DNA from: an uncultured virus (IMG/VR IMGVR_UViG_2667527573_000005) | Lineage: Duplodnaviria; Heunggongvirae; Uroviricota; Caudoviricetes | DNA: 64,000 nt | Strand: one strand, 5' to 3' | Virus record (IMG/VR): IMGVR_UViG_2667527573_000005 | Coordinates: 1-64,000 of that record | Shown: positions 135 through 64,000 of the stretch, piece by piece | Position numbering within the stretch: the stretch's first letter is position 1 | How the letters are laid out: each line of letters opens with the position of its first letter | Made by a program: the position numbers and the translations under genes | Notes under the pieces: generated by a model | Seen by the model: the letters and a program-made list of their open reading frames with translations, nothing else | Database searches by the model: none | What the model was told of the DNA's origin: nothing

Positions 135-549
135 ATGCAGATCCAGATGCTTCTTCTTTAATGGAAAGATCTTGGCTTTTGATGGTCATCAAGTCGCTTT
201 TTAAGTATTGGTCTCCCATTAAAAGCCTCATGGCTTGTGCTCTGATCGATTTTTCGATCACATTTCTGACAAAACGTCCATTGCTGAATTTAATGGGACT
301 TGTCGTGCTTTTCACTGTCATTAAGTAATCTTTCAATTTCCATTCAGCTTCTTGACTGAGCTGGTATTCCCTTTCATCGATCATTCGTTTCGCAATCTCC
401 ATGAGCTGGGTCACAGAGTAATCCGGAAAATCAATGGAGATGGGAAATCTTGATTGGAGTCCGGGATTTAACGAGAGAAAATGATCCATTTCCCGTGAAT
501 ATCCGGCGAGTATCAAAATAAACTCATGCTGTTTGTCTTCCATATGCTT
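133..549 (-). pseudogene. spoVK: 3' half of host spoVK (AAA+ ATPase), interrupted by the prophage; restorable on excision
   Basis: Translation (K)HMEDKQHEFILILAGYSREMDHFLSLNPGLQSRFPISIDFPDYS...FSNGRFVRN is the SpoVK C-terminal half; similarity stops just upstream of KHMEDK where phage sequence begins. Confidence 0.93.
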
Positions 550-2224
550 GAATATGGTTTAGTCTTTTATGCGAGTTTATAAACTCCCCTCCCTGCTCGC
601 CGTTAAGAAAATCCACATGGCTGTTTTCATTATTAAGTGAAGAACTTTTCCATACAACTTCCATGTGATCATCATCAAACAGAGTTACTTTTTCAATGAA
701 GAAATCAAGGAATTGCCGTTTTTCTTCTATTGTAATTTCATTTTTAATCATTTTAGAGAACGAGCCAATATACTCGATCATTTTTTGTTTTTTGTCTTCA
801 GTTTGTTTATTTGCAGCCAATTGTGAATTAATTATTTTAATCTCATTCTCAATATGCTCTTTGTTCTGTTCCAATGGCTGAGACAGTTGGTCGAACATAC
901 TTTCTTTAATTTTCCCTTTCCCAAAAAGAATTACATAATTTGCTATTTCTTCATCTATCTCACCGAGTTGTTTTTCTAGTCGACTTGCTTTTGCTTTGAG
1001 TTCATCGATTTTCTTTTGATCAGACGCTTCCTCTAAAAATGATTCTAGAAATTTCTCTGGATTCTTCAGGAGTTTTATAAACCAGTTCCAAAAAACTTCA
1101 TCAACGATATCGACTCTCCAGTTCTTACCTTCACATGAAACAACTTTCTTGCCATTTTGATATCCTTTTGCAGTCTTTGCTCTACAAGAATAATACTTAT
1201 ATACGCCTGATTTAGTTTTAGAAGTTATTCCTGAGCCACATGCCCCTCCACAACGACCACATTTCGCCTTGTTTTTCAGCAAATAGTCTTTAGTAGCTCG
1301 ACTTCTTCCCTTAAAGTTGCTCTTCAATCGCTCAATGATTTGCTCTCGTGTAGCTTTATCCCACATTGGAGGAATCTTTATCAATATCCATTCGTCTTTG
1401 TTTGTCGGCACCTGTTTCTTCTTACCATTAATTTGAACAACTTTTGACTTTCCATAATAAAAATCACCTGTGTAATCTTCATTCTGCAACATTCTACTTA
1501 CAGTTGCCTGATACCAAGTCTTTCCGTTAGGAGCAGCAACTCCCCTTCTTGAAAGCTCTTTAGCAATTTCATTCGAGGACATTTTTTTGTTTAAGAGCAT
1601 ATCCTTCATTTCAAGCAAAATTTCTTTTTCTTCTTCGTTATACTCAGGAAGATCTGTCACTGTATTAAATTTGTACCCATACAACCTTTTAAATGAAGGA
1701 AATTCACCTTTCTTTGCTTTAGCCAATCTTCCTCGCTTTGAGTTAGCATGAATTTTCGCCTTATTGTACTGTGCAATTGAACCTTGAATGTTGTACATCA
1801 GCATTGATTCAGGATCATGAGGATTTACTTCAAATTCAATAAACTCGATATCAACACCCATACCCCATATTCTTCTTGATACCACACCCTGTAAGGTGTT
1901 ATCTCTAGTTAGACGATCTGGGTGTAATACAATGAATTTTTTTCCTAGTCCTTTTTCTAATAAATATAAGGCGTGATTAAGAGCTGGCCGGTTTGGATCA
2001 TCTCCCATGCCCCCCGGTTCAACTAACGCAATTATTTCGCTTTCCTTGTATCCAAATTTAGAGATTGCTCTTTCTTTACACCTTTCTATTTGTGACTCAA
2101 TTGAAAAACCCTTATTAGCTTGATCTGTTGTTGATACTCTGGCATAAATCAATGCATTAATTTTGCCAATCAAATGCATTATATTGTCCGTACTTAGCTT
2201 TTGATCTCCCTTTAATATAAGCAA
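524..2224 (-). CDS. Large serine recombinase (phage integrase)
   Basis: YARVST catalytic motif, DRLTR, recombinase domain, Zn ribbon (CGRCG...YYSC), coiled coil; GGAGG RBS before TTG start. Confidence 0.95.
   Translation of the reverse strand: MLILKGDQKLSTDNIMHLIGKINALIYARVSTTDQANKGFSIESQIERCKERAISKFGYKESEIIALVEPGGMGDDPNRPALNHALYLLEKGLGKKFIVLHPDRLTRDNTLQGVVSRRIWGMGVDIEFIEFEVNPHDPESMLMYNIQGSIAQYNKAKIHANSKRGRLAKAKKGEFPSFKRLYGYKFNTVTDLPEYNEEEKEILLEMKDMLLNKKMSSNEIAKELSRRGVAAPNGKTWYQATVSRMLQNEDYTGDFYYGKSKVVQINGKKKQVPTNKDEWILIKIPPMWDKATREQIIERLKSNFKGRSRATKDYLLKNKAKCGRCGGACGSGITSKTKSGVYKYYSCRAKTAKGYQNGKKVVSCEGKNWRVDIVDEVFWNWFIKLLKNPEKFLESFLEEASDQKKIDELKAKASRLEKQLGEIDEEIANYVILFGKGKIKESMFDQLSQPLEQNKEHIENEIKIINSQLAANKQTEDKKQKMIEYIGSFSKMIKNEITIEEKRQFLDFFIEKVTLFDDDHMEVVWKSSSLNNENSHVDFLNGEQGGEFINSHKRLNHIQAYGRQTA
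540..557. other. Prophage-host attachment junction (att), probable crossover dinucleotide at 548-549
   Basis: CCATAT-gcTTga-ATATGG inverted repeat centred on TT/AA exactly where spoVK coding similarity ends; serine-integrase site geometry. Confidence 0.8.
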
Positions 2225-5930: not shown

Positions 5931-6092
5931 ACTTTTTAATATTCCTTATAGTCTGTATCTTCTCCCTTATTGTGTATTTCATTCAAAATCCTCAATAGCT
6001 TACCTTCAAGTGTTTCCTTATGTAAATTGAATAAGGTTTCCACTTGTTCTCCACTAATTTTATTTTTATTCTCAATAAAAGACCGATTTTAT

Positions 6093-9565: not shown

Positions 9566-10818
9566 AGCTCACTATCCTTCTCTTTAAAATACAGATTTTA
9601 TATTAATTTAAACGTAATAACTAATTTTTTTTAGTAGGGTTCCGTAATTCATAATTCATAAGAGCTCCCCCTCGCGTGAGTATTTTCGATAACACCCTTC
9701 GCAGTAAACGTATTTAGGTATTTCGCTTCTCGGAAACCTCTCTTTACTTCCGCAGTAAGGGCATTCGACGACCTCAGTTTCGCGCAAATATAATCCGAGG
9801 TTATTCCACTTGTTTACGTCAATCATTACGTAACCACCTCTCAGCCGTTTTAATCGCGATCTCTGCGTGCTCAAGCGTTAAAGGTTCCGTTCTCTCATCC
9901 GTCAGAAATACCGCATTACCGACCCTTCCGCGCTCTTTATACCACATCATTACGATATAGCCGCCAAACCCTTCGTCAGGCGCATAATTATCGCTTAAAG
10001 GTACGTATCCTATTGATCCGCAATCCCTCCTCGTTTTTGTTTGCGTCAAAACCACGTATTATCTACGCCTTCATTGCGCTAGGCTCTTTGCTCGTCGATC
10101 ATCAGTTTTAAGTTCTTCGCCTCCATGCCGCGATTGTTCGTTACGTAAGGAATTCCGTAAGTTTCTTTGTGCTTGGCGTGCAGGTAGCCGATAAAATCGC
10201 GCGTATTCCACTTGGCGACCGGCTTTGATTCATACGTTGTCATCTTCGTCACTTCCTTCGTACTTATATTCACGTAGTACATCCGTTAAGGAAATAGAAC
10301 CCATCGAACCACTTCCGATGAATCTTCGTAATTGTTCTTTTCGGTCGGCTTTCAGAGGAGCGTAACACGCGGATTTTAATTCCGCCTCAAGCTCCGCAAT
10401 GTGATCGAGTAGCGCCGGAATGTCTTGGCGTGCGTTTGCGATGAAGTCTGCGTATACATCTCCGCTAGTCATACAAACCAAATGAACTTCACAAGATCCC
10501 GGTGGATATTCGTAGGACACGTCTGTTCTATCCGAAACAAACCACCGCGCATCTCCAACCGCTTCCGCGCGCTTACGGATTTCTTCGAGCTGTTCCTTAT
10601 TCAACCGATTCATACTTAACGCCAACCTTTCGTTTTATTTTCGTAAGATTTCCGCCCTTTACCGCAAATTTATAACGTCCGTGTCCGTGAACCTTAACGA
10701 AGTAATATCTGCTGTTTAAGAAACGCCACGACCTTGAATCTACACTTTGCGATTAACTCGGACGCCTCTTTATACGACGTTCCAATCAACCGGACAACGG
10801 CGCGATCCAGGCGGAGCA

Positions 10819-14974: not shown

Positions 14975-15357
14975 TTATCCACTCTCCTATTTTATTATTA
15001 AACTTCATTTTCACCTTGAAAGTTAAAGAAACTACTTGTCTATCAGTTTATAAATTTCCTTCTCTACCACCTTGAAAGTTGGATACCCTAAAAAACTCCC
15101 CATTTTAAATAAAATATTAGTTTTATAGTAATTTTATTTTTATTCTAAATATATAAAAGAACAAGCTGATTAACTTGTCTCTATCTTATCACCTGTTCAT
15201 TATGTATGTCTATAGTTATTTTATTTTTATTCTTTATTTATTGGTTTTGCTTTATTAGCCTTTTGTTCCGTAAGCAAGCCGGAGGCAATATTTCACCAAT
15301 TTCATAATTCATCTTACCCTATAGGTTTCACTTTTAATGCACAATAAAGAGGCAGCA

Positions 15358-17431: not shown

Positions 17432-17540
17432 CTCTTTCCTCCTTATCGATTTTAGATAAAAGTATTCTTTTATTCGGAAATATTTCCAACAAAAATCTTT
17501 TATGGTAAATTAAAAGCAATGTATTTAAAGGAGTGTTAAT

Positions 17541-19215: not shown

Positions 19216-19257
19216 TTATTAGCTCCTTTTGATTTAAGTTTGTTTAAAATTACCCTT

Positions 19258-19500
19258 TTATCGTAATTCGTTTAGTAACTCATCAAGTTCATTAGGCTTA
19301 AAACCAACACTTCGGTTTACTTCTTCTCCTTGATCATTCAGCAAAATGGTTACCGGTACTCCCATAACACCAAATCTAGCTGCCACTTCTGGTTCCTGTG
19401 TAACGTCAACTGTCTCAAATTGAATATTTGCTTGCTCTAAGTAATTGGACACCATTTTACATGGGTTGCAATTAGGCTGCTCTAATTTAATTAATCTCAT
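19258..19500 (-). CDS. yosR: Thioredoxin/NrdH-like redoxin
   Basis: CNPC active site, GVPV; 80 aa from ATG at 19500. Confidence 0.92.
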
Positions 19501-27338: not shown

Positions 27339-27365
27339 TGGTTATTCCTCCTTTTCTCTTTAAAA

Positions 27366-27701
27366 TCATCCTTTTAAAGTAATGAATAAAATCCCAGTTC
27401 GCTGACTGCCCCGCCATTTAACTGCCAAGTCTCCTGCCATGTTGAAATGAATTTTATTAATGTCCACCTTTAACACCTTTGTTTCGCCCTCATAACTTGT
27501 CAATTTCATTTTAAGTGGACTTTTTATCCCCTCATTCAAATCAAACACCTTATATGCTGTTGAATTCTTACCAGTGTTTATAGTAATCCTGTCCTCATCC
27601 TCAACAGCTTCAATGTTCTGGTAGTGAAGAACAATTTTCGTTTCCTTCGGTAAATAATTATTAAATTTTTCTTTATAAACAGAGATTTCCTTTAAAATCA
27701 T
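27366..27701 (-). CDS. Hypothetical phage protein
   Basis: 111 aa; sole gene between palindromic sites 27361 and 27730. Confidence 0.7.
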   Translation of the reverse strand: MILKEISVYKEKFNNYLPKETKIVLHYQNIEAVEDEDRITINTGKNSTAYKVFDLNEGIKSPLKMKLTSYEGETKVLKVDINKIHFNMAGDLAVKWRGSQRTGILFITLKG

Positions 27702-27754
27702 ATCTGCCTCTCCTTTTGCAAAATTGGTTTAAAATAAAACTTTTATTTAGATCT

Positions 27755-28510: not shown

Positions 28511-28642
28511 TATCTTCCCTCATTGATGATCTTCTTTAATGCTTTTAGAAGCATATTTAGTGATTTCTTGTCACCCATTTCATCCCGACTTAATTTATCC
28601 TGCATTTCAGTTGCTCCTTTCACGATAAAAATTGAATTTTAT

Positions 28643-28819: not shown

Positions 28820-29137
28820 TGTGCCACTCCTTATTATTTGTTTTGATTTGTCACATACTGCGCTTACCCGGGAAATTATGAATATTTTCTTCTGACTATT
28901 TCCTCTTTTATAAGTCCACCAACAGCAACCCGTCTAACCCATACACTCTATCTCTTTCAGTTAACTTTCCGTTTTTTCTATTGTCTTCAATGCATTTTCT
29001 GCTTGTTTTCGATTTGAGTAAATATGTGGGTGGTAACCATAGAGATATTTCCCTTCACTCTTTGCAGCAATTACGAACATGTTCATTGCTCATCTCTCCA
29101 TTCTGGATAAAAGGAATATTTTATAGTAATTTTATTT

Positions 29138-30439: not shown

Positions 30440-30560
30440 ACATCAACACTCCCACCAACATTATTTTTATTCTAAATAAAATTGATCTTTTATATAGATC
30501 CCAATGTTCTTGTCCCGCTTCTTAGTATTAAGTATCATTAAATTAAGGTAGGGTGAGACA

Positions 30561-31977: not shown

Positions 31978-32691
31978 CTAATTAATAATTGAAACCGTTC
32001 CATGTTGTCTTCCGAAGTTAATTGCATCCTGTTCATTTGATACCAGCAAGTCCACTTTATTGCCAACAATCGCTCCACCTGTATCAATGGCTATGGCCTT
32101 AAATGAGCTCCCTCCTACTTTTATTAATACTACGGAGTTAAGTGGAATAATACTTGGATCTGTAGCTATTACTCTATAACCTTTGTAAAAAATTGATTGT
32201 GTTACATCTACGCCAGTTTTGGTTCGACCGGTGCAGCCTTCGGTACAGTTAGCAACATATGCACTAAATTCGATATCTAGTGTCTTAGCTTCATCATTTT
32301 CCACATATGTAATTTTATTTTTATTCTTTATTTGTTTATTCTTGTTTTTACCCTCACCTCCCTTCTTGATACTTTTCTTTTTCACTGGTTTGGGTTTAAT
32401 AATAGCTGCGTTAAGAATATCATCTCGCCGCTTTTCTTGTTTAGCTTTCTGTTTCTTAGAAACTTCATCGAACTTATTTAGCACCTGATTCTTGTGTTGT
32501 GGTAAGTTGATTTGTTTTGGTTTTCCATAAAATGATTCTTTTATTGAGTTATGATTGTTTCCTGTGTCTAAATGATGTTGTTCAAAATTTATGTATGAAA
32601 AGGTTGCCAGTGGGATTAAAATTATCATAGCACATTTAGTTTTTATTGTATATAATTTAATTTTATTTTTATTCTTTATTTCTTTATAGAT
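31978..32691 (-). CDS. yorM: 3D-domain (cell-wall lytic transglycosylase-like) exported protein; likely ATC start at 32691
   Basis: FSAY...TKTG, IATDPSIIPL, AIDTGGAIVGNKVDL; AGGAGG RBS lies 7 nt before ATC, none before ATG 32628. Confidence 0.85.
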   Translation of the reverse strand: MYKEIKNKNKIKLYTIKTKCAMIILIPLATFSYINFEQHHLDTGNNHNSIKESFYGKPKQINLPQHKNQVLNKFDEVSKKQKAKQEKRRDDILNAAIIKPKPVKKKSIKKGGEGKNKNKQIKNKNKITYVENDEAKTLDIEFSAYVANCTEGCTGRTKTGVDVTQSIFYKGYRVIATDPSIIPLNSVVLIKVGGSSFKAIAIDTGGAIVGNKVDLLVSNEQDAINFGRQHGTVSIIN

Positions 32692-44720: not shown

Positions 44721-44967
44721 TAATTCAATAACATATTACCATGAGGGGAAAAACTTAACAATTCCTTTTGAAATTAAAATAAAATGATGATTTTATTGGG
44801 TTATAGATAAAAGAGCCACCTAGTGGCAGCTCCAGAGTTGATCAGCCTCCGACTCTAACTTCCATATTAGCTCATCCCCCAATAATATTAATCACTTTTT
44901 AACCCCCAAAACCATTTTAATACTCTCCCTTAGGATTAAAGAGAATTATATCATGAATTTATAAAAT

Positions 44968-46285: not shown

Positions 46286-46376
46286 GTCTTCATAACTAAG
46301 TCCCTTTTGTACAAAATAATTTCTTGCTTCTTCTGAAGTCATTTAAACATCTCCCTATCTGGTTAAAATATCGTTT

Positions 46377-46823
46377 TTATTTAGATTCTAAAAGCTCAGG
46401 ATCTTCGTAAATGTTACCTATGACTTCATAATCTTCTTCACAGTAATTTATATCCCCGATCCAGCATATACCTTTCCCGTTTTCTTCCCCTGTATAATCT
46501 GAATAATAACGGCTATTAATGTTCTCTAAAGTAAATGAGCCATCCCGAAATCCGACTGAAGCAGTAAAGTGTTCTTCTATTTCGTTTCCATCAAAGAACC
46601 AGTGAACACAATGAATAATATCCCCCTCGTAAATCTCCCGGCTGTTCTTATCCTTCAAACCGGTATATTGCATTAAAGGCGATACATTTGAAAACTCGTT
46701 TCTGAAATAACAAGCTAACTCCTCTTCGTCATTATTGAGAAGTTCGTCCCAGTCAATCATTCGTGGAAATTCTTGACCATCTCTTTTCTCTGTATGATAA
46801 GCGCGAAACTTGAATTCCCTCAT
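46377..46823 (-). CDS. YopX family protein
   Basis: MREFKFRAY, LMQYTGLKDKN..EIYEGDII, EVIGNIYEDPELL. Confidence 0.9.
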   Translation of the reverse strand: MREFKFRAYHTEKRDGQEFPRMIDWDELLNNDEEELACYFRNEFSNVSPLMQYTGLKDKNSREIYEGDIIHCVHWFFDGNEIEEHFTASVGFRDGSFTLENINSRYYSDYTGEENGKGICWIGDINYCEEDYEVIGNIYEDPELLESK

Positions 46824-47996: not shown

Positions 47997-48060
47997 CAAA
48001 AATCCCCTTTTTAATTTTATTTTCATCCTTATAAAATCTCTGTTTTATCTAGATTTCTGT

Positions 48061-49909: not shown

Positions 49910-49989
49910 TCTCTCCGTTACATAATTCCTTAGAGCCTTTTTCATAACAAAATAAATTTAAATTTTATTACATTAACACTAAGTTAGTT

Positions 49990-50145: not shown

Positions 50146-50224
50146 TTTTCATTCCCCATTTCTAATAAATTTAAATTTGATTAAAACTACATAAAATAAA
50201 TATTTTATTTTCACTCTAATTTGA

Positions 50225-51600: not shown

Positions 51601-51639
51601 TTAACTATCCTCCTAAGTTATTAAAATAAAAACTATCTT

Positions 51640-52086
51640 TTATTTGAAATATTGCACAACTCCATCACCCTCAAAGTTAAATGGCTGTGGTGGCGGAGTT
51701 GATCCTAACAAGGCGTATGATTTTTGTCGCATTTGTTTAAATGCCATTGATAAATTTTTCGATTTCATCAATTTTTCAAGTAACTGTTTCCCTATTTGCT
51801 CTAATATTTTCATAGACTCATTTTTAGTTATGTCCATTTTAGGTATTGGTAAGTCCATAACTAATGCACCTGTCGTTATCTCTGAAACCTTTAAGGTATC
51901 ATCTAATGGTGTCACACAAAAACTATATCCACCGACAAATACTTCGTGACCAACTGCCTGCTTCCAATGATTTTTGTAATTTAAGCTGAAACGCTTCAAA
52001 TTAGCATCAACTATAATTTTTTCACATTCCAAATTGAGCATCCTCCAACTTGTGATTATTCGTATATATCTTCTTTGAAATCCCAT
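51640..52086 (-). CDS. Hypothetical phage protein
   Basis: ORF; likely start near 52040 after GGAGG. Confidence 0.7.
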   Translation of the reverse strand: MGFQRRYIRIITSWRMLNLECEKIIVDANLKRFSLNYKNHWKQAVGHEVFVGGYSFCVTPLDDTLKVSEITTGALVMDLPIPKMDITKNESMKILEQIGKQLLEKLMKSKNLSMAFKQMRQKSYALLGSTPPPQPFNFEGDGVVQYFK

Positions 52087-52379
52087 AATGTGGCGTTTGA
52101 TTTATTCTCATTATCATTTTCTTTCATTTCAAACTCTTCAGTATTGAACGAATAATAATTCTTCTTAACCTTGGCTAAGATTACCCTTTCGTCGCCATAA
52201 ATTTCATTTCCATTGATCTGGGTGTCCTCATTTAGATTATCTTTAGTCCGCTCATATGCTAAATTTGCTTCGTCTTCATCATCATAAACCCCAATAAGAC
52301 CAAGCTCATGTTCAAATACCATCCACAATTCATTATTTTTACTCATTTCATTGAGCCTCCTCTTTCTGTTTAAAATCAC
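52056..52379 (-). CDS. Acidic hypothetical phage protein
   Basis: ORF; likely start MSKNN after AGGAGG. Confidence 0.7.
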   Translation of the reverse strand: MILNRKRRLNEMSKNNELWMVFEHELGLIGVYDDEDEANLAYERTKDNLNEDTQINGNEIYGDERVILAKVKKNYYSFNTEEFEMKENDNENKSNATLWDFKEDIYE

Positions 52380-52470
52380 GATTTTAAGTTAATTTTAAAG
52401 CGTATCACATTGAAGAAACCTATTTTCATTGGTAAAATTTTCACAAGTAATATTTAGATGAGGTGACATC

Positions 52471-52845: not shown

Positions 52846-52860
52846 TTCCTCTTTGCCTTT

Positions 52861-53447: not shown

Positions 53448-53472
53448 CCCCTTTCTATATAAAACAGTCTTT

Positions 53473-53667
53473 TTATTGAAAATATTTATCTGATGTGCGG
53501 GCCATGTCTTCCCCGCCTAAATAGTTTTTTATTTCATTTAAGCTATAAATGACCTTATCGAATTTATCCCTAATGTGCAGTGCATATTCAACTGATGAAT
53601 CAGACATCCCTAATTCCTTTAGATTTGTGTCTAATTCTTTAAAGTAGCCTTGTAACTTTACGTTCAC
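53473..53667 (-). CDS. Hypothetical phage protein
   Basis: 64 aa; stop codon lies inside the palindromic site at 53460. Confidence 0.6.
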   Translation of the reverse strand: MNVKLQGYFKELDTNLKELGMSDSSVEYALHIRDKFDKVIYSLNEIKNYLGGEDMARTSDKYFQ

Positions 53668-53715
53668 TAAAAACTCTCCTTTTTTATTGAATTCTTTTCT
53701 TATTAAACTTCAATT

Positions 53716-53940
53716 TTATTTTGATTTAATCTCAACAATTAGACTGTCAGGATAGTTCTTCAAATCAAGTGCGTTTACATGACAGTGACCTACATATCCT
53801 TCTTTATCAACGTAATTATAATAAAACTTTTCCCCATTATTAATGATAACTTCACCCTGATGTGTATACTCCATCTCTAACTTTTGTGCCAGGTATGATT
53901 TTATTTAAATCAAATATTGTTATTTCTTTTAGCAAAATCA
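53716..53940 (-). pseudogene. Frameshifted small gene
   Basis: MILLKEITIFDLNKIIPGTKV / EMEYTHQGEVIINNGEKFYY...IVEIKSK in two frames; bounded by sites 53970 and 53703. Confidence 0.55.
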
Positions 53941-53993
53941 TTTCCTCCATTTCCATTTTCCACTCTCTATAAAATTTTACTTTTATCTAGAAT

Positions 53994-56201
53994 TCATTTG
54001 GCTTCCAATACCACAGTTTCTTTTTCAAAATCATTTCTCAATTTGATAATGGAAGTTGATTTTAGATACCCTCTGTCCTTTGTCTTAGCCCATGCAAAAA
54101 ATCTATTATGCAAAGGAGTGTAAAGGCTTCCTGTGTTAACCATATGCTCATGTTTGTTGCTGATCTTATGCTTTACTCCCCTCATTTGTTTCCAAAAGTT
54201 ATAGTAAGGGAGCTTAAGTTTTGTCATGAAGCCAGTAGCATCTTCAATTACATAACCCTCTCCCTCAATTGAAAAATCTTGTGACACGTCCAGATACCAT
54301 CTATAGAAATCTGTCCAGTTACTAAACTCCGCAACTTGTTTTTTGCACTCAATGGATAAACACTCTGCAGTAGCTTTCACTTCACTGTAAGGGAGTTTTT
54401 CATATATCATTTGCCTTTTTACGATGTCTAATAGGACTAGCTTGTCTTTACTGTATTCAATGATATGCGGATCTTTTTTTGGAAGTATTACTTCAAAAAC
54501 GAATGAAACATTATTTAGCTTCAGATAATCTTTAATGATATTTACCTTAAATTCATCAAAGGACTTGAAGAACAGCTCCTCGACCCATTTTGCATGGTCA
54601 TTTGATAATTGAGATGTAAAGGATTTAGAAGTGAATACCAACTGATCTGACAAAGAGTCATACCCTACAGTCCCTAAATATCCATTCGCCTTATCGAAGA
54701 CTGTTACTGGAAACTTCATTGTATCTACGAGATGATGCATCCTTGTTTCAGACCGTTCTCCAATATTAAAAAATTTATCATAGCTTCTACTTACAATTTC
54801 ATTGCTCTGGGTGTTAATAAACAAGCCCCTTGCCTTAATATTTGTTTCATCCCACTTTTTCTTTCTAAAGGCTTGCTTTGTAAAATTAAATGATGAGATA
54901 TTGTTTGGCATCTTGTTCTCTTGGACATATTCATGATCACGTAAGTGGGAAACCAAATCATCAATTGTTCCAACAGTTACACTATTACTCTGCACATCAC
55001 TTGAACTTTGTTTAAAAACTTTATTCTTCACTTCATGCGTTTCAATTCCGTTCTCAGACAGTGTAACGACTCTAAGATGACCTCCTCTTTCCACTTGCCC
55101 TTCCAGGTTATAAGATCTTTCTGCTGCTAACACAGGTAAACGGTACATGTTTCTATGTCCATGAATCTGTACAACATTTTGGCCAGCCGTATTTTTTGCA
55201 AATTCATAATCAATATCGTCTGAATAATCTCCAACTCCATTGATGAATTGTGTTGTTGCGGTCATCAAGAGATTTTCAGGTACGGTTGAAACTCCTCCAT
55301 GAGTTACAATGTATGTAGTGTTTTTATATGTAAAGTAAGCTAACTGATGAAACTTCCTGGCCAACTGTCTAATGTCTTTTTTATCAATGTTGGATTGTTC
55401 GATTTCTGGTTTAGTTTTGTTGTTAAATGTGCTGCTAGGTGTTTCTTCATCATTCCCATACATATTGATATATCTATCGTGATTTCCTTCCAGAATAATC
55501 ACATTTTTATTATCTTTAATTTTGATCATGAATTCTAATAGCTGTGCATTTTCAATACCTCTGTCGATAAGATCTCCTACAAAGATGTATAGTTCATTTT
55601 CATTTAAATCACCGTTTAAGTACTCTTGAAGCACAGTATTACACCCATGAACATCTCCGAAAATATGAATCTTTTTATAATCGTCAAAACATCTCGGCTT
55701 ATAAGTCATCGTGTTGTCAAACTCATCTGGTTTTAGAACAGTTACCCAAGATGGCACTTTTTCTGTTGTCATTCTTTCATAAATATTTATAATACTGCTT
55801 TCAGGAACATGTTTATGTTCAGCCCTCATTTTATTTCTTTTTAAGATTCTCCGAACATCAACATCAGAAAAATCAACTACATATACACGGTATCTATATT
55901 TTTGAGCTAGTGGCTTATATCTTGAAATCATGCTTTGCTTTGAATGAGTTGCATCGATAATTGTGAATTCACCGCGATCCATCCTATCTTCAAGCAACTT
56001 TAGTAATAAATCCCACACCTTGTTGTCGTGTTTTGGAGAGATTTCATATTTTCCACTTTTGTTTAACACAGGTGACTGAAACAGCAGTCTAATGTTGTCT
56101 GCAGAAAGAGTGTATTGCTCAAGTCCATTTTCCTTAATCCAAGTTGATTTCCCCACTCCTGGGCACCCTCTTAATAACACTAATGTTCTCATTTCCATCA
56201 A
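53994..56201 (-). CDS. Trifunctional RNA repair enzyme: polynucleotide kinase + metallophosphoesterase + Rnl1-type RNA ligase
   Basis: GCPGVGKS and IIDAT; GDVHG, GDLIDRG, GNHD, THGG, HGH; ARGLF, YDKFFN, KANG, FVFE, EGYV, KLK. Confidence 0.9.
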   Translation of the reverse strand: MMEMRTLVLLRGCPGVGKSTWIKENGLEQYTLSADNIRLLFQSPVLNKSGKYEISPKHDNKVWDLLLKLLEDRMDRGEFTIIDATHSKQSMISRYKPLAQKYRYRVYVVDFSDVDVRRILKRNKMRAEHKHVPESSIINIYERMTTEKVPSWVTVLKPDEFDNTMTYKPRCFDDYKKIHIFGDVHGCNTVLQEYLNGDLNENELYIFVGDLIDRGIENAQLLEFMIKIKDNKNVIILEGNHDRYINMYGNDEETPSSTFNNKTKPEIEQSNIDKKDIRQLARKFHQLAYFTYKNTTYIVTHGGVSTVPENLLMTATTQFINGVGDYSDDIDYEFAKNTAGQNVVQIHGHRNMYRLPVLAAERSYNLEGQVERGGHLRVVTLSENGIETHEVKNKVFKQSSSDVQSNSVTVGTIDDLVSHLRDHEYVQENKMPNNISSFNFTKQAFRKKKWDETNIKARGLFINTQSNEIVSRSYDKFFNIGERSETRMHHLVDTMKFPVTVFDKANGYLGTVGYDSLSDQLVFTSKSFTSQLSNDHAKWVEELFFKSFDEFKVNIIKDYLKLNNVSFVFEVILPKKDPHIIEYSKDKLVLLDIVKRQMIYEKLPYSEVKATAECLSIECKKQVAEFSNWTDFYRWYLDVSQDFSIEGEGYVIEDATGFMTKLKLPYYNFWKQMRGVKHKISNKHEHMVNTGSLYTPLHNRFFAWAKTKDRGYLKSTSIIKLRNDFEKETVVLEAK

Positions 56202-56220
56202 CCTTTCTATTTTTCACTTT

Positions 56221-56571
56221 TCATCCAAACTGCTTTCTCCAAGGGACTTTGCCCACAACACTGTAATCAAGCATTTCTTCGCAACTTTTACACAGAGTTG
56301 ATTTAATTATCGTCATATGGAATGAATCCCACTTACCACAACAATGACACGTCTTTTCAAAGGCTGCTGACTCCTTTTGTTTTTCCCTTTCAGAGCCCGT
56401 TCCAGTTAACAATAAGCCGTTACTATAAAGATCGTTCTGTCTCACTTCTGCTTCTACACACCAAGGGTATATTCGCTTCTTTAAGTACCTTTCCACTAAC
56501 GACTTGCTTTGGTTACTTCCGATCTTCATGAACTCTCTATTTTCAGTAAGGTCAACTGTTCTTTTCATCAC
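56221..56571 (-). CDS. Zn-finger-like hypothetical protein
   Basis: CHCC...LCKSC. Confidence 0.7.
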   Translation of the reverse strand: MMKRTVDLTENREFMKIGSNQSKSLVERYLKKRIYPWCVEAEVRQNDLYSNGLLLTGTGSEREKQKESAAFEKTCHCCGKWDSFHMTIIKSTLCKSCEEMLDYSVVGKVPWRKQFG

Positions 56572-57302
56572 TTCGCCCTTTTGAACAGTTTTTTAAACCA
56601 ATTTTCCTTTTCGTTAACTACTGAAAATCCGGGATTATTCATCCTAAACCCATTTGCTATCTTGTCCATGCTGTTTAACTGTATCTTCAATTGCTCAATA
56701 TCTTGGGGTGTATTGATGGTCATTGCAATATTGGATTCTTTTGCTTCCTGTACTTCGGAAATCATCTTATCTAAAGTGAGATCACAATATTCGTCTTCCC
56801 AGTCACCTATGTAATAAAAACGTTCAATCAAAGTACCGCTCGATTCATCTTGAAAAGTGCCAAATAAAATTGGATCTTTATCTCTCCGTTCTTTTTCGAT
56901 CTGCCTTTCAACCTTCCCCGTATAATCTGTAAACACCACATAAAACCGATCCAATTTGTCTTTCACTTTGTTGTATTTAATGATTACCTCATCAGGGATT
57001 TCACGTTCGTAATTTTCAAGCTCAATAATTTTGACTGTATCTTTTGCAATGTTATCTATGTATTCTTCAATGTCGTCCCGATAAACAAACGTATCAATAC
57101 CAAGCTTTACAATCTCCCGTTCTTTTTCAATTGATTCTAAATGGAATATCAGTTTCTTTGCAGCTTTAATTTGATTGGTTTGCTTATATTTATTGAGTAA
57201 TACCAAGCAATTGTCGTAATACCTTTGAAGCTCTTTGTCTGTAACCTTATTTTTCTTTGATTTAATCATGTCGAAATATTGATTTGGTTGTAACATTTCC
57301 AT
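56568..57302 (-). CDS. Hypothetical phage protein
   Basis: 244-aa ORF; KDPILFG, YYIGDW.DEYCDLT look like conserved motifs. Confidence 0.8.
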   Translation of the reverse strand: MEMLQPNQYFDMIKSKKNKVTDKELQRYYDNCLVLLNKYKQTNQIKAAKKLIFHLESIEKEREIVKLGIDTFVYRDDIEEYIDNIAKDTVKIIELENYEREIPDEVIIKYNKVKDKLDRFYVVFTDYTGKVERQIEKERRDKDPILFGTFQDESSGTLIERFYYIGDWEDEYCDLTLDKMISEVQEAKESNIAMTINTPQDIEQLKIQLNSMDKIANGFRMNNPGFSVVNEKENWFKKLFKRAK

Positions 57303-57318
57303 CTTTCCACTCCTTTAC

Positions 57319-57567
57319 TTAATCTAATTCCCTCATGTCTTCTCTCTGCTCAATATAACTTTTAAAGTCCTCCCACTCTCTATCGATCTCTTTAATATTC
57401 CTAGCAATATAGGCTTCTGCAATGGCTGGATCAATCAACTTTTGAAGAGACAGCTGATACATAAATTCAATCTTTGACACTGTTTCTAGAAATGACTGGG
57501 CATAACTTTTTGCTTTATTTAAGCGATATTGACTCATTCCATGTTTTGATTCCATTATTATTCTCAC
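57319..57567 (-). CDS. Hypothetical phage protein
   Basis: ORF with AAGGAG RBS. Confidence 0.7.
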   Translation of the reverse strand: MRIIMESKHGMSQYRLNKAKSYAQSFLETVSKIEFMYQLSLQKLIDPAIAEAYIARNIKEIDREWEDFKSYIEQREDMRELD

Positions 57568-57605
57568 TCCTTTTAATCACATTAAAATGCATCTTTTATT
57601 TTAAA

Positions 57606-58652
57606 TTAACTGTAGAGGTTATATGTAGCTTCATTTATTTTAATTTTCCTGTCATCCATGAATAAGATATATGCATGGTCAAATTTCCCTTTGTTTTTCC
57701 CCCTAGTTAAAAACTTTGGCTCTGATACATTTAAACCATTTTCATCAACATATTCTTTCATCATTCTAAAGGCTTCTTGACTGTACTTTATTTCGGAAAC
57801 AGTTTGACCCCCTTTTTCCGTAAGATTAATACTAATACAATCATCTTGGTAACCAGCAGCACCTTTAGGGGTTTTATAAAACCCAAGGTCTCTTGCTAGA
57901 TTCTCTGCAAATCTAATATGTGGCTTATGAGTTAAAGAGAATACATTAAATTTTCTGGCTATCGATTCTGCAGACATGTCTCCTTCTCTAAGAACTGTGG
58001 TTTTAGAAATTTTGTGGCTAATCTCATCAACTTTGTTGTTTACTTCTTCAATCCTTTTATCATTTAGATATTGGTTTAGTTCAAGTTTACAAGTATTTAA
58101 TTGGTTAATTGCAACTAAATCAGCACTATCAACTTTAAGAACATCTTCATACATCTTAATTTTCATCTTTAAGGTTCTTTCATGAATATCTTCAGTTCTC
58201 ATTATTTCATTTTCAATTCTATCGAACTTCCCTTCTTTACTTAGTTGCGGATTGACTTCTCTTCTCATAAATTTTTTGAACCTGTTCGCATGACCAGAGT
58301 TTGAATAATGCATAACCCCAAAAATTCCTTCTTCTAAGACAATATCTAAAGTAGGTACTCTCCAATATTGCTGTTTTAAAGTCGTTGCCAAATTGGCAAC
58401 GAGTGAAGGTGAGTCGTTGCCTTCCAGGATACTCTTCTTAAAAATTTTCAAGTTATCGTCTGACAAAGATATGTATTCAAAACCTTCCTCAAATTCTTCT
58501 CTTGTTTTGATGTTATGCCATGCTTTTCTTACATCCTTATAACCTTCAAAGGACATTAATTCTGAAGCAAGAGTTGCAACTTTACCGTCTAATTCAAATA
58601 AAAATAAATTCCTGTTCTCATCGATAGAGAAATTAATAATATTTTTTTCCAT
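57606..58652 (-). CDS. Bro-N domain antirepressor-like protein
   Basis: LASEL...GY.D...; EEGIFGVM..S....A.RFKKFM..EV.P.L pattern; coiled coil. Confidence 0.75.
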   Translation of the reverse strand: MEKNIINFSIDENRNLFLFELDGKVATLASELMSFEGYKDVRKAWHNIKTREEFEEGFEYISLSDDNLKIFKKSILEGNDSPSLVANLATTLKQQYWRVPTLDIVLEEGIFGVMHYSNSGHANRFKKFMRREVNPQLSKEGKFDRIENEIMRTEDIHERTLKMKIKMYEDVLKVDSADLVAINQLNTCKLELNQYLNDKRIEEVNNKVDEISHKISKTTVLREGDMSAESIARKFNVFSLTHKPHIRFAENLARDLGFYKTPKGAAGYQDDCISINLTEKGGQTVSEIKYSQEAFRMMKEYVDENGLNVSEPKFLTRGKNKGKFDHAYILFMDDRKIKINEATYNLYS

Positions 58653-58690
58653 ACTTTTTACATCTCTCCTTTTATAAATCTCGATAAAAC

Positions 58691-58930
58691 TTACATTTTA
58701 TTTTGATTCTTAATGATTTCATTCTTTCTCTCTTCATTTGTAAAAACAATATCCTTTAAAATAAACTGTATTTCTTCGAGGTTGTCCTTAACAAAGTCCA
58801 AATCACCAATGGTCTTTCTTATTTCATCCTTATTCAAGTTATGTAAAGCTCTGTTGCATGAAGCAAAAACCTTTAAAAATTTTTTCATGACCATGTTTTT
58901 TATTTCTTTATTCTGCGGATCATTAATCAA
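58691..58930 (-). CDS. Hypothetical phage protein
   Basis: 79 aa; stop codon within the site at 58685. Confidence 0.65.
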   Translation of the reverse strand: MINDPQNKEIKNMVMKKFLKVFASCNRALHNLNKDEIRKTIGDLDFVKDNLEEIQFILKDIVFTNEERKNEIIKNQNKM

Positions 58931-58971
58931 ATAAAAGCGACATCTCCTTTCTTTAGTATCTTTATGATTTG

Positions 58972-59022
58972 AATTATACAGTTCATGGGATCATATGTAA
59001 ATAGTAATTTTATTTTTATTCT
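58972..59022 (-). promoter_or_regulatory. SigA promoter with upstream repeated element
   Basis: Minus strand AGAATAAAAATAAAATTACTA-TTTACA-17 nt-TATAAT (TG extended). Confidence 0.82.
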
Positions 59023-59047
59023 TAATTTGTTTAAAAACAAGCTTTAC

Positions 59048-59287
59048 TTACATAGTAAAGCCACTGTTTAATACTGTTTTAGCATCGTCCAATTTCCACA
59101 GAGTTTCATTAATTTTATCTCTAAGATCCAACAGTGCAGCCCTGTCAATCCTCAACGTTAACTTATTGCCTGTATTCTGAAAGTCAATTTCTATGTAATA
59201 TTCTCCACTTGATATGTTATCAGATCCAACGTTAAAGATAATTGCTGCTAAGTTATCTCTCATATCAATTTCAATGTCCAGTTTCAT
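59048..59287 (-). CDS. Hypothetical phage protein
   Basis: 79-aa ORF. Confidence 0.65.
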   Translation of the reverse strand: MKLDIEIDMRDNLAAIIFNVGSDNISSGEYYIEIDFQNTGNKLTLRIDRAALLDLRDKINETLWKLDDAKTVLNSGFTM

Positions 59288-59358
59288 TTTTAAACTCCAG
59301 TCTGACTATAAAGCCATCAATTTTTTATCTCTCTGATGACTGACAAGATGTGTGAATT

Positions 59359-59682
<324 letters not shown>

Positions 59683-59825
59683 TTAACCAAACATACGTTC
59701 TCTTTAGATCAAAATAATTATACCCTTTTTCCTATTAGTCTGCAATTCTTTTTTGATCATTTAAAAATCAGGTAAGAATTGATATAGTAAGATAAGGAGA
59801 ATACATAAAATCAGGAGGTTGTCCG

Positions 59826-60047
59826 ATGCTAGAAGTGGAATTCGGACAATGTTTGATTCCAGATCTCCTTCAAAAAAGAGGGCTTTCATTGGGGCAGCTT
59901 TCGCGTATCACCGGTATCAGTACCCAAAGGTTAAGTGATTACGCTAATGGCGTTAGACCTTCTATGAACATTCGAACAGCCAAACTTATAGCTGTAGCGC
60001 TAAATTGTACCCTCGAAGACCTCTATGAATGGAAAATCAAACATTGA
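59826..60047 (+). CDS. yopS: XRE-family HTH regulator
   Basis: LSLGQLSRITGISTQRLSDYANG HTH; AGGAGG RBS; convergent with yopR. Confidence 0.82.
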   Translation: MLEVEFGQCLIPDLLQKRGLSLGQLSRITGISTQRLSDYANGVRPSMNIRTAKLIAVALNCTLEDLYEWKIKH

Positions 60048-60255
60048 AAATCGCTAGGAATTTCGCCCTAGCGAACCTCCCTGTACCCTTTTTAGGGTAT
60101 AGTCTTATTTTACCACAAATTACCCCTATTGTCTTTGTCTACTTTTGTCGAATTCTGAAAATACGAACAAAATCCTACCATCTAATATTTAAATGTCACG
60201 ATTCAGCTCATATTTATGTTGGTTATTTTATTTTTATTCTTTTTGTTATGTAAGA

Positions 60256-60277
60256 TTAATCCCTATCAAGGGATTAA
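60256..60277. terminator. Hairpin after yopR
   Basis: TTAATCCCT-ATCA-AGGGATTAA. Confidence 0.65.
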
Positions 60278-61267
<990 letters not shown>

Positions 61268-62629
61268 CTAACGAACATCAATTTCATCATAGAAAACTTT
61301 TTTCAGTTTTTTCTTCATAGCAGCATTTAATTGTTCTTCATAATTTCTGCTGCTTAACTCCTTGAATGTCTTACCTTTATCAAAATCAACCTGCTGTAGT
61401 ATCGTTGCTAGTTTAGCTAGTGGTGTGCCATTCTCTTGCATTTTTTTGGCCAAATAAATGTATCCATAAAATACAGCATTATAGTTAATGTATGATCTGT
61501 TTCTTGACTCGCTAAGATCATCTTCAAGGAAATCATCTGGAAAAGCATAAAAAAGCTCAGCAAAGAAGTCCCTTAAATACTTGGACAATTGAATAGCGTC
61601 TCTCCGTGAATTGATCTCAAAAGCATCGTCAATTGCTTCAGAAAGTGTATAATAAGTAACCAAGAATGGACTACTCATACCAATTTCACTTTGTACACTA
61701 ATTTTGTCTTTGAGTTCACTATTATATTTAAGTTGCTCAACAATAGTGGAAGAATAGCGTTTTTGACCAAGTTCTTCAATCCTTGATTTCTCAACAGGAT
61801 TTATTGTATTCATTTGGGCAAAATGACGTTTTGCTTTTTCTTCAGTATAATTTAAGATATTCAAAATAAAGGTTTGATCTAATTCAGGAGCTTCAGTAAT
61901 AGCTTTAACAACTCCAGATATTCTATGGTAACCATCTAGAACATCAACTAATGTACCCTTAGTAACAGTTAAGCTTAGGTCGCTTGGATTGTACTCAATT
62001 TCTTCATCCTCATCTGATGTGCCAAACCGTGCATTAAATGTAAACATAGACACGATTAAGTCGCCCTTTTTAAAAAGTTCTTTAATCTCTTCAACTGATT
62101 TAGGATTAGTCTTTGGCACAGGTATTAAGCTTCCCTTAATGAATCTGCCTTCCCGTTGAGTATTATAGTTGTATTGTAGTATTGAGCTATTATATAGTTC
62201 ACTTAATTCTTTCGCAGTAATTGAAGTCACATAATTATCTTCATTTATTTTTATTACGTTTTTAAATGTATAAGGAAGTGTTAGAACCTCTTCACCGGCA
62301 AAAATTCTTCCGCCCTCTAACTCCTTAGCCAGCCTTGGTGGAAAATAACTCAAAGGGTCTAAAGCGGCTACGCCAGTAAGTTTGTGTAGTTCTTTAGAGA
62401 AAATATAAACTTCCTTTTCATTCAAGCGTTGAATGTTATTATCATTGTTATTCAAAATTTCTTGTACATAACCAGGCAGCGTTTTATACTGCGCTCCCAT
62501 GATTGCTTTTAATTCCTTTACTTTTCTGGAATCATGTTTAATATCAGACGCAACTTCTTCTATTTTATTTTTAAGCTTTAAAAGCTTATCTGTTGTCAAC
62601 AGATCCTGAACCACAGTATCACCTCGCAC
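61268..62629 (-). CDS. yopQ: DndB/ParB-like DGQHR-domain protein (YopQ/SroE)
   Basis: VLDGYHR motif, F..MN; synteny. Confidence 0.82.
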   Translation of the reverse strand: MRGDTVVQDLLTTDKLLKLKNKIEEVASDIKHDSRKVKELKAIMGAQYKTLPGYVQEILNNNDNNIQRLNEKEVYIFSKELHKLTGVAALDPLSYFPPRLAKELEGGRIFAGEEVLTLPYTFKNVIKINEDNYVTSITAKELSELYNSSILQYNYNTQREGRFIKGSLIPVPKTNPKSVEEIKELFKKGDLIVSMFTFNARFGTSDEDEEIEYNPSDLSLTVTKGTLVDVLDGYHRISGVVKAITEAPELDQTFILNILNYTEEKAKRHFAQMNTINPVEKSRIEELGQKRYSSTIVEQLKYNSELKDKISVQSEIGMSSPFLVTYYTLSEAIDDAFEINSRRDAIQLSKYLRDFFAELFYAFPDDFLEDDLSESRNRSYINYNAVFYGYIYLAKKMQENGTPLAKLATILQQVDFDKGKTFKELSSRNYEEQLNAAMKKKLKKVFYDEIDVR

Positions 62630-62698
62630 ATAATCATATTAAATTTATCATTACATTAACATACAAGTAAAGCATTTATATGATTATTTATATCACTT

Positions 62699-63769
62699 TT
62701 ATTTTAATTCTAAAAATTTTTTGAGCTTTTTTAGAGTGGAAACATCACAATCTAAAAAGAACTGTCTAAACTGGTCTAATGTAACAGTATCCAGGAAATC
62801 AATATCTATATCTTGATCAATTATAACACCAGGATCTTGAGAATAATCTCTTTCCTTATTTAGATAATGATCATTTAGCACATTGATGTTTTTATGTCCT
62901 GAAAATGCTGCCACCTTTTTAATGTCTCCGCTTATATTATAAGAAAAATTAGTGGCTGTATTACGTAAACTGTGTGGCCTAAGATTTCTTTCCTGTGGAA
63001 TATTTAACACTCTGCAAACTCTGTGCCACATATCATTAATTGAGTCTACAGTTAATTTATGAAAGATCAGTTCATGCTCACCATACTCATTCTTGAGTGT
63101 TAACAACTCCTCATAAAAGGAGCTAGAAATACCTACTGGTCTCGCTTTCTTCTGTTTAGTCTTCTTGAAATTGACTAAGTAACAATCGTGCTTCGATGAA
63201 TACGTTATGTCTTCCCATTTTACTCGTAAGACTTCTGATTTTCTTGCTCCTGTGCGTACACTAAATAAAATAAAGAGCTTTTTCATTAACCTGTTCTGTC
63301 TCTCATGGATAAATGCAGCTTCTGCAAACTCTTCAGCTTCAGGAATCCCCTCAAATGAACCAGCTGGATTCTTCTCTGTCGGCAAGGGTCTAAAATTAAA
63401 AACGCTTGATTCACAATCGTGTTCTGACTCCAAGAATTTAATTAAACTTTTCAGTGCTGCGATTTTATTATTAATCGTAGCATTTGTATTATTTTTATTT
63501 TTAGCCAAATAAGTCCTATAATCCATTAAATCATTCTTTTTAATTATTACATCTTCTTCAGTTAAATATTCAATATCCTTACCAACTTGATAATTAAAGA
63601 ATTCTCTAATATGCCTTTCATAGGTGGTTCTAGTATTAGACTTTTCAATAAATCCTGATTTGTCATCCCTATTTCTCAAATCTAATTCATCAAACCATCT
63701 ATTTATGTCATTAAAAATGGAGTAATCCCTAACAGATGGTGTTTGCTTTTTCACTTCCAAGGTTTCCAC
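62699..63769 (-). CDS. yopP: Tyrosine recombinase-family protein (YopP/SroD) with intact catalytic motifs
   Basis: TGARKSE, KTK, HSLR, SGH, HY; N-terminal core-binding domain. Confidence 0.88.
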   Translation of the reverse strand: METLEVKKQTPSVRDYSIFNDINRWFDELDLRNRDDKSGFIEKSNTRTTYERHIREFFNYQVGKDIEYLTEEDVIIKKNDLMDYRTYLAKNKNNTNATINNKIAALKSLIKFLESEHDCESSVFNFRPLPTEKNPAGSFEGIPEAEEFAEAAFIHERQNRLMKKLFILFSVRTGARKSEVLRVKWEDITYSSKHDCYLVNFKKTKQKKARPVGISSSFYEELLTLKNEYGEHELIFHKLTVDSINDMWHRVCRVLNIPQERNLRPHSLRNTATNFSYNISGDIKKVAAFSGHKNINVLNDHYLNKERDYSQDPGVIIDQDIDIDFLDTVTLDQFRQFFLDCDVSTLKKLKKFLELK

Positions 63770-63770
63770 C

Positions 63771-63935
63771 TCATTTAATTTTATCCATTAAATAAATATC
63801 TAACTCATACCACAATTTTAACCAATCAGTATCTTGCTTAAAGCTTCTTAGCAGCATAATATTTGTATTGCAGATTTCTATTTGCTCCAATAAGTCGTGA
63901 CCGTCTAGCAACTTAATCAAAATAGATAAATTCAA
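63771..63935 (-). CDS. 54-aa hypothetical protein in the sro operon
   Basis: AGGTG RBS, TTG start, MNLSILIKLLDGHDLLEQ...; stop abuts yopP. Confidence 0.5.
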   Translation of the reverse strand: MNLSILIKLLDGHDLLEQIEICNTNIMLLRSFKQDTDWLKLWYELDIYLMDKIK

Positions 63936-64000
63936 TATAGCACCTACTTTAAGTATATTACTTGCTCAATGAACAGCTGAGTATTGTTTTGTCGCCTTAA

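Follow-up and report, generated by a model that had tools for sequence, protein, structure and literature searches.

A Xer-like tyrosine recombinase in the sro operon of a phi3T-like prophage and its candidate role at the dyads between early genes

Why does a prophage that already carries a serine integrase also keep a tyrosine recombinase with an intact active site? The question is raised by sroD (also known as yopP), a gene in IMG/VR record IMGVR_UViG_2667527573_000005, a 127,190-bp provirus with an estimated completeness of 99%, whose first 64 kb form the stretch that we analyzed (the window). By all the sequence and fold criteria applied, the SroD product belongs to the tyrosine recombinase superfamily, and the early genes of its phage are separated by numerous copies of a short dyad, TAAAA-N6-TTTTA. 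We tentatively propose from sequence comparisons that SroD acts on these junction dyads both as an auxiliary repressor and as an enzyme for the addressed exchange of gene cassettes. The two genes behind the question are:

62699..63769, minus strand: sroD (phi3T_95 type; YopP position), Xer-like tyrosine recombinase, 356 amino acids (aa) from GTG (353 aa if TTG)
524..2224, minus strand: large serine recombinase (SprA-type integrase), 566-aa open reading frame (ORF) with PF00239 and PF07508 matches

The host phage of the sroD gene is a phi3T-like Spbetavirus. Over positions 60000-64000 the DNA has 99.5-99.7% identity with Bacillus phage phi3T and closely related phages (99.5% with phi3T itself), and all 11 phage records matching this segment do so at 99% identity or higher. 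In the annotated phi3T record the ORF is phi3T_95, part of the six-gene operon phi3T_92-97, which is named yopMNOPQR or sroABCDEF in the literature (PMC8612738, PMC10769878). One of these papers points out that YopP has an integrase domain of the XerC type and names SprA as the protein responsible for integration (PMC8612738). The Kohm preprint counts yopP among the core genes and reports its transcription in the dormant prophage, seen in one data set of three; both points have been restated (PMC10516654). A scan of the whole 127,190-bp record for PF00589 identified SroD as the sole match (59.8 bits). SroE and SroF, encoded next to SroD, are said to be master repressors with many binding sites in the phage, and SroD reportedly serves as an auxiliary repressor. 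The earlier note on this DNA rightly recognized the serine integrase; its further claim that YopP has no obvious substrate leaves out this reported repressor role.

SroD is Xer-like in sequence and in predicted structure. We numbered its residues from the GTG start; a TTG codon lies three codons downstream and may be the true start, because the 353-aa homologues begin three residues later. The protein is 98.8% identical to phi3T_95 over residues 1-345 and only 31% identical to SPbeta YopP, the same gene at the same place in the operon (PMC8612738). It matches the Pfam families Phage_integrase (PF00589; E value of 2.2e-15, 57.3 bits for a cut-off of 27.1) and PF02899, an N-terminal SAM-like domain (25.2 bits for a cut-off of 22.3). 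A profile of 81 SroD family members matches XerA (1e-20), an archaeal XerC-like protein (3.9e-19) and XerD (1.1e-15), and also IntI4 and XerH; in these alignments the R, K, HxxR, H, and Y of SroD fall beneath the motifs of XerA and the XerC-like protein. The AlphaFold2 model has a mean predicted local distance difference test (pLDDT) score of 92.1 and a predicted template modeling (pTM) score of 0.84, and 78 chains match it in Foldseek at E<=0.001. The best matches are XerH-difH, Tn1549 Int, XerA, Cre, and lambda Int, with a probability of 1.00 for XerH, Tn1549 Int, Cre, and lambda Int and template modeling (TM) scores of 0.51-0.57. The model, the Foldseek matches and PF02899 all describe the two-domain clamp fold, with a core-binding and a catalytic domain.

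The XerC/XerD, XerH, and XerA proteins, which act on dif sites, are thus the best profile and fold matches of SroD. However, SroD, whose nearest NCBIfam models are those of XerA, XerC, and XerD, scores far below the cut-offs of these equivalogs for XerA (67.5 of 220 bits), XerC (45.7 of 335), and XerD (38.2 of 330), is encoded by a phage and extends some 54 residues past the catalytic tyrosine. Nor is it a member of the integron integrases (TIGR02249; 20.2 bits for a cut-off of 265), and it has no match to the MrpR families PF22823 and PF22822 at E<=0.1. SroD is, therefore, a Xer-like protein and not a Xer orthologue, an integron integrase or a catalytically dead protein of the MrpR kind. The extension (residues 303-356, window 62699-62863) is a confident helical tail in the model, longer than the tail of SroF past the same position, and its residues D308, G314, F334, and F337 are conserved among close relatives. 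The modeled tail could mediate contacts between protomers.

All five active-site motifs that the earlier note named in YopP were located: TGARKSE (173-179), KKTKQKK (202-208), HSLRN (266-270), SGHKN (290-294), and NDHYL (299-303). The catalytic set of SroD (R176, K205, H266, R269, H292, and Y302) is complete. An exhaustive HMMER search with SroD returned 1425 cluster representatives at E<=1e-3, 283 of them at E<=1e-10, and we aligned the query with 146 proteins of 300-400 aa drawn from 154 family proteins (n=147). The codons and the counts in this alignment are:

63242..63244, minus strand: codon R176 (Arg I, TGARKSE), 147/147
63155..63157, minus strand: codon K205 (catalytic Lys, beta-hairpin, KTK), 145/147
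62972..62974, minus strand: codon H266 (His II, HSLR), 147/147
62963..62965, minus strand: codon R269 (Arg II, HSLR), R in 89 and K in 58 of 147; Lys in SPbeta YopP
62894..62896, minus strand: codon H292 (His/Trp III, SGH), H in 139 and W in 4 of 147
62864..62866, minus strand: codon Y302 (nucleophile, NDHY), 145/147

Arg II is the sole catalytic position that toggles, and the serine beside His II (S267) is also invariant (147/147). Because these residues are kept across relatives that are mostly 25-40% identical to the query, the catalytic residues of SroD are under selection. Outside the active site, a T46-x3-Y50 pair in the first long helix of the model (H45-62) is conserved in 144/147 sequences.

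The candidate sites for such an enzyme are abundant in the phage. The window contains 21 copies of TAAAA-N6-TTTTA for 1.00 expected (standard deviation of 0.89; maximum of 4 in 100 shuffles). The whole genome has 33 copies, of which the minus-strand early region (below 75 kb) holds 28. Read along the coding strand, the dyads give a longer consensus, TCTAAATAAAA-N6-TTTTATTTAGA, in which a free centre of 6 bp separates two arms of 11 bp. When the early region was scanned de novo for all 5-nt dyads with 4-8-nt spacers, TAAAA-N6-TTTTA ranked first (28 for 1.4 expected), and the second-ranked dyad was the same one, a base wider. All but two of the 28 early dyads (26/28) are intergenic, outside ORF calls, at a median of 8.5 nt past the stop codon and 28.5 nt ahead of the next start. 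The SPbeta genome (50-134 kb) contains 29 such dyads. Two features annotated as 'palindrome' in its record, located upstream of yopM and next to yopS (77856-77871 and 82394-82411, or 27856-27871 and 32394-32411 in our SPbeta locus L002), differ in sequence and are distinct from the junction dyad. The 21 dyads of the window, with the SroF boxes discussed below and the occurrence of the same 16-bp core (16-mer) in other phages, are:

6076..6091: junction dyad; SroF box abuts (6055-6074); same 16-mer in SPbeta
9585..9600: junction dyad
15110..15125: junction dyad; SroF box abuts (15129-15148); same 16-mer in SPbeta
17457..17472: junction dyad; same 16-mer in SPbeta, both flanks homologous
19245..19260: junction dyad; same 16-mer in SPbeta; homology stops ~45 nt downstream
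27361..27376: junction dyad; same 16-mer in SPbeta, flanks unrelated
27730..27745: junction dyad; same 16-mer in SPbeta
28626..28641: junction dyad; same 16-mer in SPbeta, flanks unrelated
29108..29123: junction dyad; SroF box abuts (29127-29146); same 16-mer in SPbeta
30477..30492: junction dyad; degenerate SroF box abuts (30456-30475); same 16-mer in SPbeta
32528..32543: dyad inside a greedy ORF call
44780..44795: junction dyad
46364..46379: junction dyad; same 16-mer in SPbeta, ~28-bp identity island
48032..48047: junction dyad; SPbeta homology begins exactly here; SroF-like box abuts (48012-48031)
50192..50207: junction dyad; same 16-mer in SPbeta, flanks unrelated
51627..51642: junction dyad; same 16-mer in SPbeta, flanks unrelated
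52371..52386: junction dyad; SPbeta homology begins exactly here
53460..53475: junction dyad; 16-mer in 28/35 sequences, with 10 upstream and 6 downstream flank types
53970..53985: junction dyad; same 16-mer in SPbeta, isolated island
57583..57598: junction dyad; 16-mer in 30/35 sequences, with 10 upstream and 12 downstream flank types in 22 combinations
58685..58700: junction dyad nearest the sro region, on its downstream side

The dyads follow a stop codon and precede the next ribosome-binding site, and their left arm often reads as a -10-like hexamer; these features could suggest that they act in RNA or transcription (as processing sites, attenuators or promoters) and have no relation to recombination. 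We regard this as very improbable. The outer arms do not covary, with 3.38 of 8 pairs complementary within a dyad and 3.42 when the partners are shuffled. They follow a consensus and do not pair with each other, as expected of a protein site in duplex DNA rather than of a hairpin; hence, the reading as a hairpin or RNA stem was rejected. The promoter reading was rejected as well: a sigma-70 scan of positions 44001-64000 found 62 promoter-like sites for 81.9 in shuffled sequence, few of which overlap dyads, and the aligned dyad consensus has no conserved -35 element. Furthermore, a role in RNA would leave unexplained why slot-specific centres sit between unrelated flanks.

The dyads show their most distinctive behavior when phages are compared. 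The identical 16-mer, centre included, is present in SPbeta for 17 of the 33 dyads, in collinear order, and alignments show that many of these common dyads are islands with a match of 16-28 bp and unrelated sequence on both flanks. The centres are all different within each of four genomes (33, 34, 35, and 30) and none is palindromic, as chance would also predict. To map where identity ends, we pooled the coding strands of 35 sequences (the window's genome, SPbeta, SPR, phi3T, and 31 IMG/VR loci). In 1680 pairs with a common 16-mer in distinct contexts, pairs that are non-independent and were selected for that 16-mer, ungapped identity stops within 2 nt of the core in 873 on the right (offsets 15-17) and in 1027 on the left (offsets 0 to -2). 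In others the identity reaches ~90 nt or beyond, which holds for ~265 pairs on the right side and ~350 on the left. Five of the 25 dyads seen at least four times passed the four-gamete test, for which flank types came from a crude k-mer clustering. As a control, we collected isolated collinear exact matches of 16-40 nt: dyads account for 12 of the 20 matches to SPbeta (SroF boxes for 5) and for 10 of the 19 matches to SPR. Breaks at the edges of the core between unrelated flanks place the exchange within ~16 bp and make the spacer the mark of a single slot. Our reading of these comparisons is that genomes have exchanged DNA repeatedly inside the 16-bp core, with each slot retaining its own centre. 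The pattern is exactly the one expected from a tyrosine recombinase that needs identical overlaps, and rare short-homology events favoring the longest identity could produce it too.

Individual slots illustrate the arrangement. The window has 1.65 kb that SPbeta lacks (46380-48031), bounded by two dyads; the downstream dyad has the SPbeta centre and the upstream one a new centre, and the upstream dyad is also the exact point at which homology to SPbeta begins again. In phi3T, two dyads flank the counter-defence gene nip (phi3T_120; PMC11984713; 83282-84649 of the phi3Ts record), so a known accessory gene occupies an addressed slot. The 16-mers around the nip slot (window 50192-51642) bracket only 359 bp in SPbeta (92394-92768). 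Distant phages with the sroDEF genes have other sets of centres than the phages of the B. subtilis group; one dyad 16-mer is common to three of them, at a similar distance downstream of sroD (L032 17807, L033 15597, and L104 16926).

The genes next to sroD provide a second line of comparison. In the window, sroD is directly upstream of a DndB-like sroE, which is followed by a MrpR-like sroF, and SroD is expressed from this sro lysogeny operon:

61268..62629, minus strand: sroE (YopQ position), DndB/DGQHR (ParB-like) protein; always adjoins sroD
60278..61249, minus strand: sroF (YopR/MrpR position), integrase-fold master repressor; R, H, R, H, and Y lost
63771..63935, minus strand: small ORF directly upstream of sroD in the sro operon (phi3T_94 position)

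The SroF product matches both Pfam domains of MrpR. Alignment to MrpR at the seven positions of its published table (Table 3 in PMC10516654) gives I142/D143, E149, K170, K255, A258/N259, N292, and V305 in SroF. Thus, SroF retains the lysine and the glutamate of the seven and has lost five of the six catalytic residues of SroD, with the lysine alone kept, which bears out the loss of catalytic residues that the earlier note saw in YopR. A recent preprint likewise describes SroF as having lost catalysis and the tyrosine, reading DNA through T22/L25/Y26 and binding a 26-bp box as a monomer (10.1101/2025.11.27.690993). The T46-x3-Y50 pair of SroD resembles these DNA-reading residues. SroD and MrpR/SroF have the same fold and operon in common, yet SroD keeps the six catalytic residues and lacks the MrpR Pfam match (PMC10516654; 10.1101/2025.11.27.690993).

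SroF boxes are concentrated on the early-gene strand (37, versus 4 on the other). They are often directly followed by a TTGAC-type -35 element (59005-59024, 43555-43574, 29388-29407, and others), as in the predicted promoter at 59001-58973, and the box thus seems to occupy the upstream edge of early promoters. Because the promoter-like -35 elements accompany the SroF boxes and not the dyads, the dyads are not classic operators. The two kinds of element are related, however. The SroF box overlaps the outer right arm of a dyad at five sites, and the A-tract-rich SroF operator resembles the dyad arm, with AGA and ATAAAA elements in both (10.1101/2025.11.27.690993).

These observations make SroD a candidate for the enzyme that acts on the dyads, since it is the sole PF00589 protein of the phage, its fold family works on sites with the 11-6-11 geometry and its dead paralogue SroF reads a related A-tract that overlaps some dyads. 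Two SroD monomers would bind the two 11-bp arms of a dyad between early genes and, in a lysogen, their presence would add to repression. When two related genomes meet in one cell, SroD would exchange strands across the 6-bp centre of dyads with the same centre. With all centres within a genome being different, a phage could not delete its own genes in this way, and the cognate slots of two phages could still swap contents. Such swaps would give the mosaic that is observed, in which identity collapses at the edges of the 16-bp core.

The same logic is known from heterospecific lox and FRT sites, which have identical arms and different centres and which Cre and Flp recombine only with same-centre partners, so that segments are swapped without deletions. 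Cassette exchange with lox or FRT is engineered and uses two or three variants, whereas the dyads are ~30 natural variants per genome and their reaction is a proposal. We consider it possible, if speculative, that recombinase-mediated cassette exchange occurs naturally in SPbeta-family phages, with ~30 dif-like dyads along the early region that carry slot addresses in their centres and with SroD as the dedicated recombinase. At non-matching centres SroD would form unproductive silencing complexes, which would explain its repressor phenotype; matching centres would permit precise swaps of accessory and counter-defence genes that preserve gene order.

Does the presence of SroD predict the dyads? 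We searched for related loci with a 10-sequence SroD alignment and scored dyad enrichment in each at p<=1e-3. Dyads are enriched at 30 of 31 viral sroDEF loci and at 1 of 10 loci with a lone SroD-like gene, and genome contigs show the same division (4/4 sroDEF loci, from Bacillus rugosus, Bacillus sp. T33-2, B. pseudomycoides, and Terribacillus aidingensis, versus 0/4 lone loci). The co-occurrence that the earlier note had suggested checking thus follows the trio of sro genes as a whole, which is never split in the loci examined. When loci were anchored on SroE, the order sroD-sroE-sroF was identical in 73/73.

Several results weigh against SroD as the exchange enzyme, and many of them favor a rival in which SroD is purely a DNA-binding auxiliary repressor. 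Its catalytic residues would then grip the DNA backbone or serve some minor role, the dyads would be operators of SroE or another phage protein, and the mosaic would come from short-homology recombination by host RecA or by a phage Sak4-like annealing protein with an exonuclease. We view this rival as possible, though doubtful. First among these results, SroD and SroF are both present at all 73 SroE-anchored loci, ~68 of which are dyad-enriched and many of whose contigs overlap the earlier sroDEF set, and none of the 73 lacks SroD. The trio is inseparable, so co-occurrence cannot single out SroD, and the ParB-like SroE is an equally placed candidate for binding the dyads. In addition, the dyad core stays constant while SroD, SroE, and SroF diverge to ~30-40% identity; a search for lineage-specific arms across the SroD lineages, including the weakly enriched L144 and L163, found no altered or substitute dyad. 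The residues that are invariant only in trio-type SroD (K107, R172, R250, and others) were considered as the basis of a common DNA specificity and rejected as too thin.

The active site itself is less uniform than that of phi3T-type SroD might suggest. SPbeta YopP reads HSFK, with a lysine at Arg II, as do 58/147 family members, and SPbeta-type phages with this lysine are equally rich in dyads (8-14 per 21 kb). Going by sequence, 'complete active site' is exact for phi3T-type SroD and slightly generous for SPbeta YopP. Two lineages have a frameshifted, split sroD and keep their dyads, 6 and 11 in 21 kb: L034 (9914-10934; same assembly as L107, a Terribacillus aidingensis provirus) and L157 (8826-9865). 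The frameshifts in L034/L107 and L157 may be recent breaks, real pseudogenes or sequencing errors. Motif arrays without an intact yopP, which the earlier note regarded as refuting a role for YopP, are thus found in these two lineages and weigh, if weakly, against that role.

The exchange evidence has its own counterweights besides the non-independence of the pairs described above. A phage annealing protein that uses 16-28 bp of identity could leave the same mosaic, and the SPbeta annotation includes a Sak4-like protein, a RecJ-like exonuclease, and a Holliday-junction resolvase. Four laboratory hybrids of phi3T(s) and SPbeta (Hyb1-3 and PP526179) switch parentage inside common segments of 1.4, 3.2, 4.9 or 18 kb, and the authors of the hybrids place 15 of 16 crossover sites at homology (Dragos preprint). 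Other switches in these hybrids are short patches of a few tens of bases, and several edges of common segments coincide with dyads. Switches within common segments reflect ordinary homologous recombination and are, for this reason, uninformative about exchange specific to dyads. No link of SroD to the palindrome or to cassette exchange was found in the papers searched.

A purely repressive SroD is harder to reconcile with other results. SroF, the paralogue that is a pure repressor, has lost five of the six catalytic residues, whereas R, K, H, H, and Y are each present in 139-147 of the 147 SroD family sequences, at identities of 25-40%. An 11-bp half-site with a 6-bp centre suits a recombinase clamp better than a helix-turn-helix operator, and the -35 elements that go with the SroF boxes separate the dyads from classic operators. 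Furthermore, breaks within 2 nt of a 16-bp core leave very little homology for a homology-driven route. The earlier note's choice of SroD as the best candidate for TAAAA-N6-TTTTA thus finds partial support in the sole PF00589 match, the conserved site, the enriched 11-6-11 dyads, and the exact joints, and it is weakened by a core that remains constant as SroD diverges.

An active SroD might also work on something other than the dyads, such as a single site for the resolution of dimers or concatemers, as Cre does at loxP and Xer at dif, or in another inversion or excision. The intact and conserved active site and the Xer-like fold and profile are consistent with this, and lone SroD-like loci have no dyad enrichment in 9/10 viral and 4/4 genome-contig cases, so members of the family work without TAAAA dyads. 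The de novo dyad scan of the early region revealed no other candidate site, however (28 versus 1.4 for the top dyad), and we hold such a substrate to be unlikely. Less likely still is that the dyads are used by another enzyme, either the host XerC/XerD (RipX/CodV) or the recombinase of a co-resident element. Their 11-6-11 geometry is of the dif type, and the pdif modules of Acinetobacter plasmids offer a precedent for host Xer sites next to mobile genes: accessory modules there are bordered by numerous Xer-type sites and pass from one replicon to another (PMC6449649). Yet the dyads travel with sroDEF phages across host genera (the B. subtilis group, B. pseudomycoides, and Terribacillus). The pdif modules also differ in that they depend on host XerC/XerD, reside on plasmids and do not form one ordered and addressed series as the dyads do.

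The proposed role of SroD in exchange departs from other known systems as well. Xer acts on one site, whereas SroD would face ~30 sites with different centres. The PeSL cassettes of T4-type phages are short elements, repeated between genes, where related phages shuffle their modules (PMC2839356). A PeSL consists of a promoter and a terminator stem-loop, and its recombination relies on homology (PMC2839356); the dyads are not promoters, do not form stable stem-loops and offer only a 16-bp core. The dyads show no sign of a folded single-strand site and lack an attI or common promoter, and the exchange would be between genomes, in contrast to the capture of integrons and the inversion of shufflons. 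Integrons (IntI/attC) and shufflons (Rci/sfx) each pair a dedicated tyrosine recombinase with many short sites that separate cassettes or segments.

Mosaic phage genomes are usually attributed to illegitimate or homology-driven recombination plus selection. If our proposal is correct, a phage-encoded enzyme and addressed sites would make modular exchange a programmed reaction, and this would explain how accessory genes are reshuffled in large Bacillus phages without breakage of the gene order. It would also provide SroD, a conserved and puzzling protein, with a second role, and the dyads would constitute a natural set of ~30 mutually exclusive recombination sites for genome engineering.

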